From a virus (taxonomy: Duplodnaviria; Heunggongvirae; Uroviricota; Caudoviricetes): a stretch of DNA of 13,170 bases. The stretch is taken from the IMG/VR virus record IMGVR_UViG_2526164619_000007, positions 1 to 13,170 of that record; one strand, written 5' to 3'. Each line of letters starts with the position of its first letter. Positions within the stretch are counted from its first letter, which is position 1. Below the pieces are notes generated by a model. The model saw only the letters and a program-made list of their open reading frames with translations, had not been told where the DNA came from and made no database searches. The position numbers were made by a program, and so were the translations under genes. Below, in pieces: positions 7,965 through 8,410 of this stretch.

Positions 7965-8134
7965 GGGTGCTTGAGGCTATCTGCTTCAGGCATGAACACC
8001 AAAAGGCAGATAGAGAAAAGCCCCAGTTAACATTACGCGTCCGGCAAGACGCTTAACATTAATCTGAGGCCAATTTCATGCTTTGCACATGTAGGTTAGC
8101 CTCTTACATGCCGAAAGGCAAGGAGAAGCAGGCT
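7965..8134 (+). ncRNA. hok mRNA 5' leader (region expected to hold the antisense Sok-like RNA target)
   Basis: Starts near gcttgaggctatctgc, resembling the plasmid R1 hok leader as I recall it. Inverted repeat ctatctgc...gcagatag at 7979-8015. Confidence 0.4.
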
Positions 8135-8290
8135 ATGAAGCAGCAAAAGGCGATGTTAATCGCCCTGATCGTCATCTGTTTAACCGTCATAGTGACGGCA
8201 CTGGTAACGAGGAAAGACCTCAGTGAGGTACGAATCCGAACCGGCCAGACGGAGGTCGCTGTCTTCGTAGACTACGAATCCAGGAAGTAA
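8135..8290 (+). CDS. Hok/Gef-family type I toxin (51 aa), closest in my recollection to HokD/RelF
   Basis: MKQQKAMLIALIVICLTVIVTALVTRKDLSEVRIRTGQTEVAVFVDYESRK with SD AAGGAG at 8120-8125; family Cys in DLCE is Ser here. In-frame upstream ATGs at 8078 and 8108. Confidence 0.85.
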   Translation: MKQQKAMLIALIVICLTVIVTALVTRKDLSEVRIRTGQTEVAVFVDYESRK

Positions 8291-8367
8291 GAGTGACCGG
8301 GCGGGGAGCTGATCCCATCCCCGCCCACCTCTGATGTGTCAGGCATCCTCAACGCACCCGCACTTAA

Positions 8368-8410
8368 CCCGCCCATCGCTGTGATCTCTCAGCGTTTCGG
8401 CGGGTTTTTT
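8368..8410 (+). terminator. Intrinsic terminator of the hok transcript
   Basis: Stem cccgcc (8368-8373) / ggcggg (8399-8404) with inner cgctg/cagcg pairing, followed by T6 at 8405-8410. Confidence 0.6.

Follow-up and report, generated by a model that had tools for sequence, protein, structure and literature searches.

Does a Hok-family toxin keep its potency when the cysteine found in nearly all its relatives is replaced by serine, and does an upstream reading frame that coincides with that of the toxin change its control? Both questions are raised by a hok locus in a stretch of 13,170 nucleotides (nt) of viral DNA (Caudoviricetes; IMG/VR record IMGVR_UViG_2526164619_000007, positions 1 to 13,170), which is called the window here at its full length. 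We consider it likely that the locus is a complete hokD-type hok/mok/sok type I toxin-antitoxin cassette, carried by a defective Shigella/E. coli lambdoid prophage, and that its toxin, with serine at residue 30 (Ser30), is attenuated. The cassette, its in-frame mok and the exact peptide are already in public databases, where they are annotated as Hok-family toxin.

The toxin gene and its serine codon

The peptide of 51 amino acids, MKQQKAMLIALIVICLTVIVTALVTRKDLSEVRIRTGQTEVAVFVDYESRK, is encoded together with its stop codon at 8135-8290 on the plus strand. Against the Pfam profile HOK_GEF (PF01848) it scored 77.4 bits (E 6e-22, cutoff 22), covering profile positions 1-42 of 42. It is 88% identical to HokD of E. 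coli K-12, 76% to K-12 HokC (Gef) and 41% to Hok of plasmid R1, and 98% identical to WP_014532198.1, which RefSeq annotates as HokD. A survey that covered 1264 unique Hok peptides found six residues conserved in more than 80% of them (M1, C16, T18, L30, E32 and E41 in the numbering of the survey logo; bioRxiv 10.1101/2025.08.07.668861), and in an alignment with K-12 HokB, HokC and HokD and R1 Hok all of them are present here, as M1, C15, T17, L29, E31 and E40 in local numbering. Judged by identity and by the rem gene downstream, the locus is a member of the prophage-borne hokD orthologue group.

The original prediction had read the peptide as an unmistakable Hok/Gef-family member in which the family cysteine is serine and the C-terminal tail differs. 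The profile score bears out the family assignment, and the alignment to the family places Ser30 (AGT) opposite Cys in K-12 HokC, K-12 HokD and R1 Hok, and opposite Tyr in HokB. The tail is indeed distinct, VDYESRK as against TAYEPEE in K-12 HokD, although VDYESRK is the common tail of its allele group and the otherwise identical peptide with Cys occurs on at least 1000 contigs. Local residue 30 corresponds to position 31 of the survey logo and to position 29 of HokB.

The closest known relatives are the loci encoding WP_014532198.1 in E. coli FDAARGOS_943 and S. flexneri SFBU1023. These have the same promoter, leader, mok frame MLCTCRLASYMPKGKEKQA, VDYESRK tail, fold-back inhibition (fbi) element and terminator, in the same queH-hokD-rem context, and differ by Cys30. 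A single T-to-A change at 8222 (TGT to AGT) is the sole difference between the hok transcripts of the window and FDAARGOS_943, a second difference lying downstream of the terminator. K-12 hokD (relF, in the Qin prophage) resembles the window in having rem downstream, a 3' untranslated region (UTR) with fbi, and the TACGAA motif. However, it stands behind relBE and has lost leader, mok and sok (nothing upstream of the hok Shine-Dalgarno sequence (SD) could be aligned), whereas the window keeps the full cassette; it also carries Cys30.

The exact Ser peptide was found on three contigs of Shigella flexneri/boydii (HCR5812107.1, HCS1651594.1 and WP_426203211.1). A scan with a degenerate codon gave TGC or TGT at all of 120 viral-contig loci and all of 20 loci on species-representative genome contigs, and an exact-match scan of one-genome-per-species contigs gave no match to the Ser allele. 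By these comparisons the Cys-to-Ser change is one rare single-nucleotide polymorphism (SNP) on a very common allele, not a trait of a subfamily. In the survey, logo position 31 is occupied by Cys in 92% of the peptides; in another 4.8%, which form the hokB group, it is Tyr, always encoded by TAC followed by G, which is the editing motif of TadA (bioRxiv 10.1101/2025.08.07.668861). The AGT codon of the window gives neither Cys nor an editable Tyr at this position, where the residue is near-universal rather than a strict mark of membership in the family.

Disulfide formation and natural alleles at residues 30 and 37

All E. coli Hok paralogues except HokA have one periplasmic position hard-coded as Cys and another occupied by an editable Tyr (PMC5630033). 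For HokB, strong toxicity needs C29, which arises by editing, together with C46 and disulfide formation in vivo, and forms without Cys29 are mildly toxic (PMC12214031). The window peptide, as read from its codons, breaks the pattern of one hard-coded Cys. It is like HokB in having no DNA-encoded Cys at the residue-30 equivalent, and the same two periplasmic positions are concerned. In HokB, an editable Tyr (TACG) is combined with hard-coded Cys46 and editing restores the pair, whereas the window has a non-editable Ser and the editable Tyr47 only. The Tyr47 codon stands in a TACGAA motif that all of 116 related loci share, and the base to be edited, A8274, is predicted to be unpaired with a probability of 0.996. 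In K-12 hokD the Tyr site is edited at about 6% (PMC12214031; the site is also given in PMC5630033).

From its coding sequence the peptide would thus have no periplasmic Cys unless Tyr47 is edited, and then a single one. Since Ser30 offers no partner Cys and AGT is no substrate for editing, an intramolecular disulfide would not form, and by analogy with the Cys29-Cys46 bond of HokB the toxin is likely to be attenuated. We expect that it probably still inserts into the membrane. In a prophage that is degrading, attenuation is consistent with either mutational decay or detoxification.

Several points weigh against this reading. HokC and HokD are toxic when overexpressed although Tyr47 editing is low (6-9%), so a disulfide is not strictly required for Hok toxicity. 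Work by Poulsen and colleagues in 1991 is said to have found that dimerisation of Gef via a disulfide is not essential for toxicity. In the papers that could be read, our literature search found no direct mutational data on Cys30 in HokC or HokD. Chromosomal hok loci are reported not to mediate post-segregational killing, so the cassette as a whole may have no physiological activity, irrespective of residue 30. The promoter predicted for the antisense RNA Sok lies below the threshold of the consensus scan, its -10 sequence TAACCT being weak and conserving the TAnnnT core only.

Natural variation at the residue bears on how these points are weighed. Among 72 unique cores of close HokD relatives, most variable positions show conservative exchanges between I, V, L and A, while the otherwise invariant C30 and G37 have several radical replacements (Y, S, G and W at C30; C, D, V and S at G37). 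Bearers of such alleles include P0005, P0016, P0077, P0090, P0129 and P0140, and in P0077 a second, independent C30S has arisen on another allele. C30Y alleles were found on 76 and 51 contigs and C30W on 24; the C30Y codon may be editable by TadA to Cys if it is TAC before GAG. The replacing residues are chemically diverse and mostly each one base away from TGT or TGC, which argues for repeated selection of disarmed alleles rather than for a mutational hotspot. This sample, small and not phylogenetically controlled, gives a hint that point mutations disarm the hok genes of prophages again and again.

An artefact would make the serine meaningless, and the codon is indeed a single base apart from a very common allele. 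We give practically no credence to a sequencing or assembly error and reject it: the identical peptide stands under the three accessions given above, and the Shigella draft contig L003 (GCA_026022055.1) has the same SNP while differing from the window at 18 other positions, namely 17 substitutions in queH and one indel, so that at least two distinct sequences carry it. Ser30 is therefore a real allele. A real allele could still be a drifting polymorphism without effect, the protein being a fully potent membrane toxin by virtue of its transmembrane helix and periplasmic tail. The killing by overexpressed HokC and HokD with little Tyr47 editing speaks for such neutrality, as does HokB, which naturally has Tyr at the residue-30 equivalent and is still an active pore former. 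In saturation mutagenesis of HokC, moreover, the transmembrane region, including the invariant Cys15, proved highly tolerant of mutation (PMC8509063).

We nevertheless hold functional neutrality of C30S to be unlikely. Among the 1264 surveyed peptides nearly all that lack the common Cys have an editable Tyr instead, HokB forms without Cys29 are mildly toxic only, and the clustering of radical substitutions at the invariant C30 and G37 resembles selected loss of function more than neutral drift. Attenuation of the Ser30 toxin is the reading that we prefer.

The hok mRNA, mok and Sok

The features of the cassette are collected in Table 1. The promoter of the hok mRNA ends 7 nt 5' of the start of the Rfam leader match, and the leader, 176 nt 5' of hok, is matched by RF01794 end to end and well above the gathering score of that model (117 bits against 59). 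RF01794 is named 'sok antitoxin (CssrC)', yet it models the hok-sense strand and its consensus stops at the hok AUG. In this orientation the match supports a hok-type leader, not an antisense transcript.

Table 1. Features of the hok/mok/sok cassette, in window positions
Feature	Position	Strand	Basis or remark
hok mRNA promoter, TTGATT-18 nt-TAGAAT, sigma-70-like	7929..7958	+	consensus scan, 9/12 matches
Predicted full-length hok mRNA, transcription start to end of U-run	7965..8411	+	Rfam model start (5'), terminator fold (3')
hok mRNA leader	7965..8140	+	Rfam RF01794 by cmscan, 117 bits, E 1e-26, model 1-157/157
tac element GGGUGCUUGAGG (5' end)	7965..7976	+	pairs with 8348-8360 in minimum free energy (MFE) fold of full-length RNA
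Predicted Sok antisense RNA: 5' single-stranded tail, long hairpin, GGGGCUUUUCUCUAU 3' tail	8010..8086	-	transferred by alignment from annotated K-12 sokC (16952-17010)
mok Shine-Dalgarno GAGG	8066..8069	+	8 nt before mok ATG; read from sequence
mok reading frame, in frame with hok	8078..8290	+	would yield a 70-aa peptide, Hok plus 19 N-terminal residues; open reading frame (ORF) list
Predicted Sok promoter: -35 TTGCCT (8121-8116), 17-nt spacer, -10 TAACCT (8098-8093)	8093..8121	-	read from minus strand
hok Shine-Dalgarno AAGGAG	8121..8126	+	read from sequence; base-paired in predicted full-length fold
hok (hokD-type) toxin ORF	8135..8290	+	Pfam HOK_GEF; identity to K-12 HokD and WP_014532198.1
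Codon 30, AGT (Ser) for TGT/TGC (Cys) in relatives	8222..8224	+	alignment to FDAARGOS_943 and O18
Tyr47-Glu48 TACGAA, TadA A-to-I editing motif (Tyr-to-Cys recoding site of HokC/D/E)	8273..8278	+	read from sequence
GC-rich 3'-UTR hairpin, 9 base pairs (bp), 10-nt loop, just past stop codon	8299..8326	+	MFE folds of full-length and truncated RNA
fbi (fold-back inhibition) element CCUCAACGCACCC	8348..8360	+	12 bp, one bulge, to 7965-7976 in MFE fold
Intrinsic terminator: 8-bp GC-rich AACCCGCC/GGCGGGUU stem, inner small hairpin, then UUUUUUG	8366..8411	+	fold

The RNA from 7965 to 8411 was folded with an MFE of -185.6 kcal/mol (z -7.5 against shuffles). In the predicted structure its two ends pair as tac and fbi, the arrangement of fold-back inhibition, and the fbi element is kept in O18 and in K-12 hokD. 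When the RNA is truncated at the 3' end, the tac bases are predicted to refold into a local 5' hairpin. The terminator fold (8366-8405 plus the U-run) has -22.8 kcal/mol (z -5.9) with a structured loop of 25 nt, which contains a 17-nt insertion relative to O18 that is also present in FDAARGOS_943. A simple terminator scan made no call at 8366-8405, because the loop is longer than 8 nt; as neither this terminator nor the Sok promoter was flagged by a consensus scan, both are argued from homology and folding. The plasmid-like leader and strong intrinsic terminator that had been proposed from the bare sequence are upheld by these results, and the span then given to the locus, 7965-8410, matches the predicted transcript almost exactly.

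The serine SNP lies outside tac and fbi, both SDs and the Sok target. With the Cys codon, U8222 and G8251 are predicted to make a wobble pair within a 9-bp helix of the coding region (8216-8224/8249-8257); with the Ser codon this pair becomes an A-G mismatch, and the predicted MFE shifts from -189.6 (Cys) to -185.6 kcal/mol (Ser). A placement of the SNP in the 3-nt loop of a local hairpin was dropped, since the global fold pairs U8222 with G8251.

On the minus strand, the predicted Sok RNA overlaps the mok SD and the first 9 nt of mok. Its predicted fold (-30.2 kcal/mol, z -5.0) has the architecture of K-12 SokC, to which it is equivalent in position and identical in the 3' tail. The layout of the candidate Sok promoter resembles TTGCGC-17-TATCCT on an R1-type plasmid locus and TTGACC on K-12 sokC. 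Both the Sok gene and its promoter are predictions by homology. The K-12 locus hokC/mokC/sokC (gef) can be aligned with the leader of the window from the transcription start, and likewise has an in-frame mok with an extension of 19 codons. It is disrupted downstream by IS186 and has Cys30, while the window has an 18-nt insertion in the hairpin targeted by Sok, seen equally in the predicted Sok hairpin relative to K-12.

Plasmid R1 hok/mok/sok (parB) has the elements predicted for the window: tac and fbi, a mok SD targeted by Sok, the layout of the Sok promoter and coupled translation of hok. R1 differs in being plasmid-borne, with proven post-segregational killing and an out-of-frame mok, whereas the window has a prophage locus that is known here from its sequence. 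Under the paradigm from R1 and K-12, a stable full-length hok mRNA (7965-8411) would be kept translationally silent by pairing of its 5' and 3' ends through tac and fbi, and trimming at the 3' end would permit refolding. Ribosomes starting at mok (8078) would then open the hok SD, so that translation of hok would be coupled to that of mok. The short Sok (from about 8086 to 8010, minus strand) would pair with the translation-initiation region of mok, block it and trigger decay.

The ATGs at 8078 and 8108 lie 57 and 27 nt 5' of the hok ATG and, as had been pointed out in the original prediction, both are in the hok frame; the ORF from 8078 to 8290 has 70 codons. It is equally correct that mok of R1 is out of frame, its AUG at 116-118 and the hok AUG at 174-176 being spaced by 58 nt (PMC9841398). 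The further suggestion that translational control may therefore depart from the R1 model did not hold up. ATG 8078 is aligned with the annotated start of K-12 mokC, and K-12 mokC (16751-16960) and hokC (16751-16903) have a common stop codon, so MokC is HokC with 19 additional N-terminal residues; K-12 mokB is out of frame with hokB. As in mokC/hokC, a product initiated at the mok start of the window would be an N-terminally extended Hok of 70 amino acids.

The spacing from the SD-preceded mok ATG to the hok ATG was taken from 135 hokD-type loci (L008-L147) over the 80 nt upstream of hok. It is 57 nt in 102 loci, 56 nt in 12, 58 nt in 9 and 54 nt in 1; one locus was classed apart, as the pattern also matched its hok start. 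The mok ATG is missing in the remaining 10, all K-12-like relBE-hokD loci, and the layout GAGG-N6-10-ATG is retained in 125 of the 135. The Hok of IncFII plasmid pMTY1886 (NZ_CP128973.1; 294-509) is 100% identical to R1 Hok and has an SD-preceded ATG in frame at 57 nt; for this gene RefSeq annotates just a truncated 33-aa 'Hok family toxin'. Reading the R1 mok as in frame from this plasmid locus was rejected, since the published R1 coordinates are out of frame by one base. The 1-nt indel that separates the two loci indicates that the mok frame is unconstrained. Across these sequences the frame drifts through 1-nt indels among near-identical leaders and is not a conserved property.

In R1, translation of mok is required only up to the hok SD and is dispensable beyond the hok start (PMC9841398). 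Together with the drift of the frame this leaves no ground for expecting different control, and a mechanism other than that of R1 is not supported by the in-frame arrangement. Going by the alignments, ATG 8078 is the normal mok start for the subfamily. ATG 8108 lacks an SD and falls between the predicted -35 and -10 sequences of Sok, and most relatives have GTG in its place; it was rejected as a functional start and is, on this comparison, a lineage polymorphism.

A stronger version of the in-frame argument would make the arrangement a distinct regulatory mode, in which a toxic Mok-Hok fusion of 70 amino acids is produced from the mok start under control of Sok. The two frames do coincide in the window and in most relatives, and annotation pipelines often give the Hok toxin in its 70-aa form (as in 107 of 148 retrieved database homologues). 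Yet among the 135 loci are 21 close relatives, nearly identical in the leader, whose mok ATG lies out of frame, at 56 or 58 nt, and whose hok SD and ATG are intact, so the conserved feature is a separate initiation site for hok; among the related loci the SD AAGGAG and the ATG of hok are fully conserved. In R1, toxicity persists when stop codons are placed in mok beyond the start of hok (PMC9841398). Nor would the mode be new, as K-12 mokC/hokC is already annotated with the same arrangement. A fusion of this kind is in our view very improbable, and the locus is better read as a cassette of the R1 and K-12 type with its own hok start.

Prophage context and meaning of the allele

The cassette stands between queH (7221-7907, Pfam QueH) and a rem homologue (8540-8827, PF27490), in the early-right (nin-like) region of a defective lambdoid prophage. 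The prophage genes around it encode a cI-like repressor, a Cro/YdaS-YdaT pair, an HTH_36 replication protein and a DnaB-like helicase, and further neighbours are DUF1627, DUF977, DUF1367 and DUF1133 proteins and a tRNA cluster. A query of 581 bp was 99.7% identical to the E. coli-labelled chromosomes FDAARGOS_943 and 944, where RefSeq has the HokD toxin beside queH, and the same queH-hokD junction occurs in many B2 strains at about 91% identity. Contig L003 corresponds to window positions 1413-9617 at 99.78% and ends exactly at both of two IS1 copies, which indicates that the window comes from a Shigella/E. coli cryptic prophage. The IS1 copies, at 641-1410 and 9623-10389, are 100% and 99.6% identical to IS1 of FDAARGOS_943.

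Compared with L003, a 1-nt deletion at 3377 splits the gene of the HTH_36 replication-initiator-like protein into ORFs 3177-3701 and 3689-3931. In L003 the gene is intact as a single gene of 251 amino acids, and that of the window looks like a fresh frameshift pseudogene. The DnaB_C-type helicase (3894-5323) is spread over two overlapping ORFs (3894-4415 and 4289-5323) and probably represents a further replication gene broken by a frameshift; in L003 no gene was called over the corresponding stretch. Two IS1 insertions and split replication genes show a prophage that is visibly decaying.

Some further observations concern the surroundings. The second IS1 copy is inserted between the genes for the DUF1367 and DUF1133 proteins, interrupting the prophage there. 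The 17 substitutions that distinguish the window from L003 are all confined to 268 bp of queH (7475-7742), which looks like a short recombination patch, and elsewhere in the 8.2 kb the indel at 3377 is the only difference. The cI-like repressor has as neighbours, at 2420-3086, a gene of the YdaT_toxin family and a Cro/YdaS-like gene that matches P22_Cro and, weakly, YdaS_toxin, an arrangement of the Rac ydaS/ydaT type. The tRNA cluster at 12524-12823 holds tRNAs with anticodon CAT, Arg-TCT and Thr-TGT; the CAT tRNA is called Met by ARAGORN and is tRNA-Ile at the apparent equivalent in L001. A fourth match, at 12769-12823, resembles a truncated tRNA (Rfam, 29.3 bits, model 10-63); it had no ARAGORN call, and the fourth tRNA gene of FDAARGOS_943 is tRNA-Gly.

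As a discovery the locus carries little weight, being a rare SNP on a very common and already annotated prophage hokD allele. It seems doubtful to us, and distinctly improbable, that Ser30 is one of several independent natural disulfide-null HokD variants (with C30G, C30W, the second C30S and radical changes of G37) that were selected to detoxify or re-tune prophage hok. If it were so, the killer form, with Cys30 and edited Cys47, would have been turned into a mild form resembling unedited HokB, with at most intermolecular Cys47 dimers, and Hok toxicity would be tuned in natural populations at exactly the two positions linked to editing. The value of the allele is modest and is that of a natural experiment: a natural Ser30 toxin offers a cheap test of whether the disulfide mechanism of HokB extends to the HokC/D branch.

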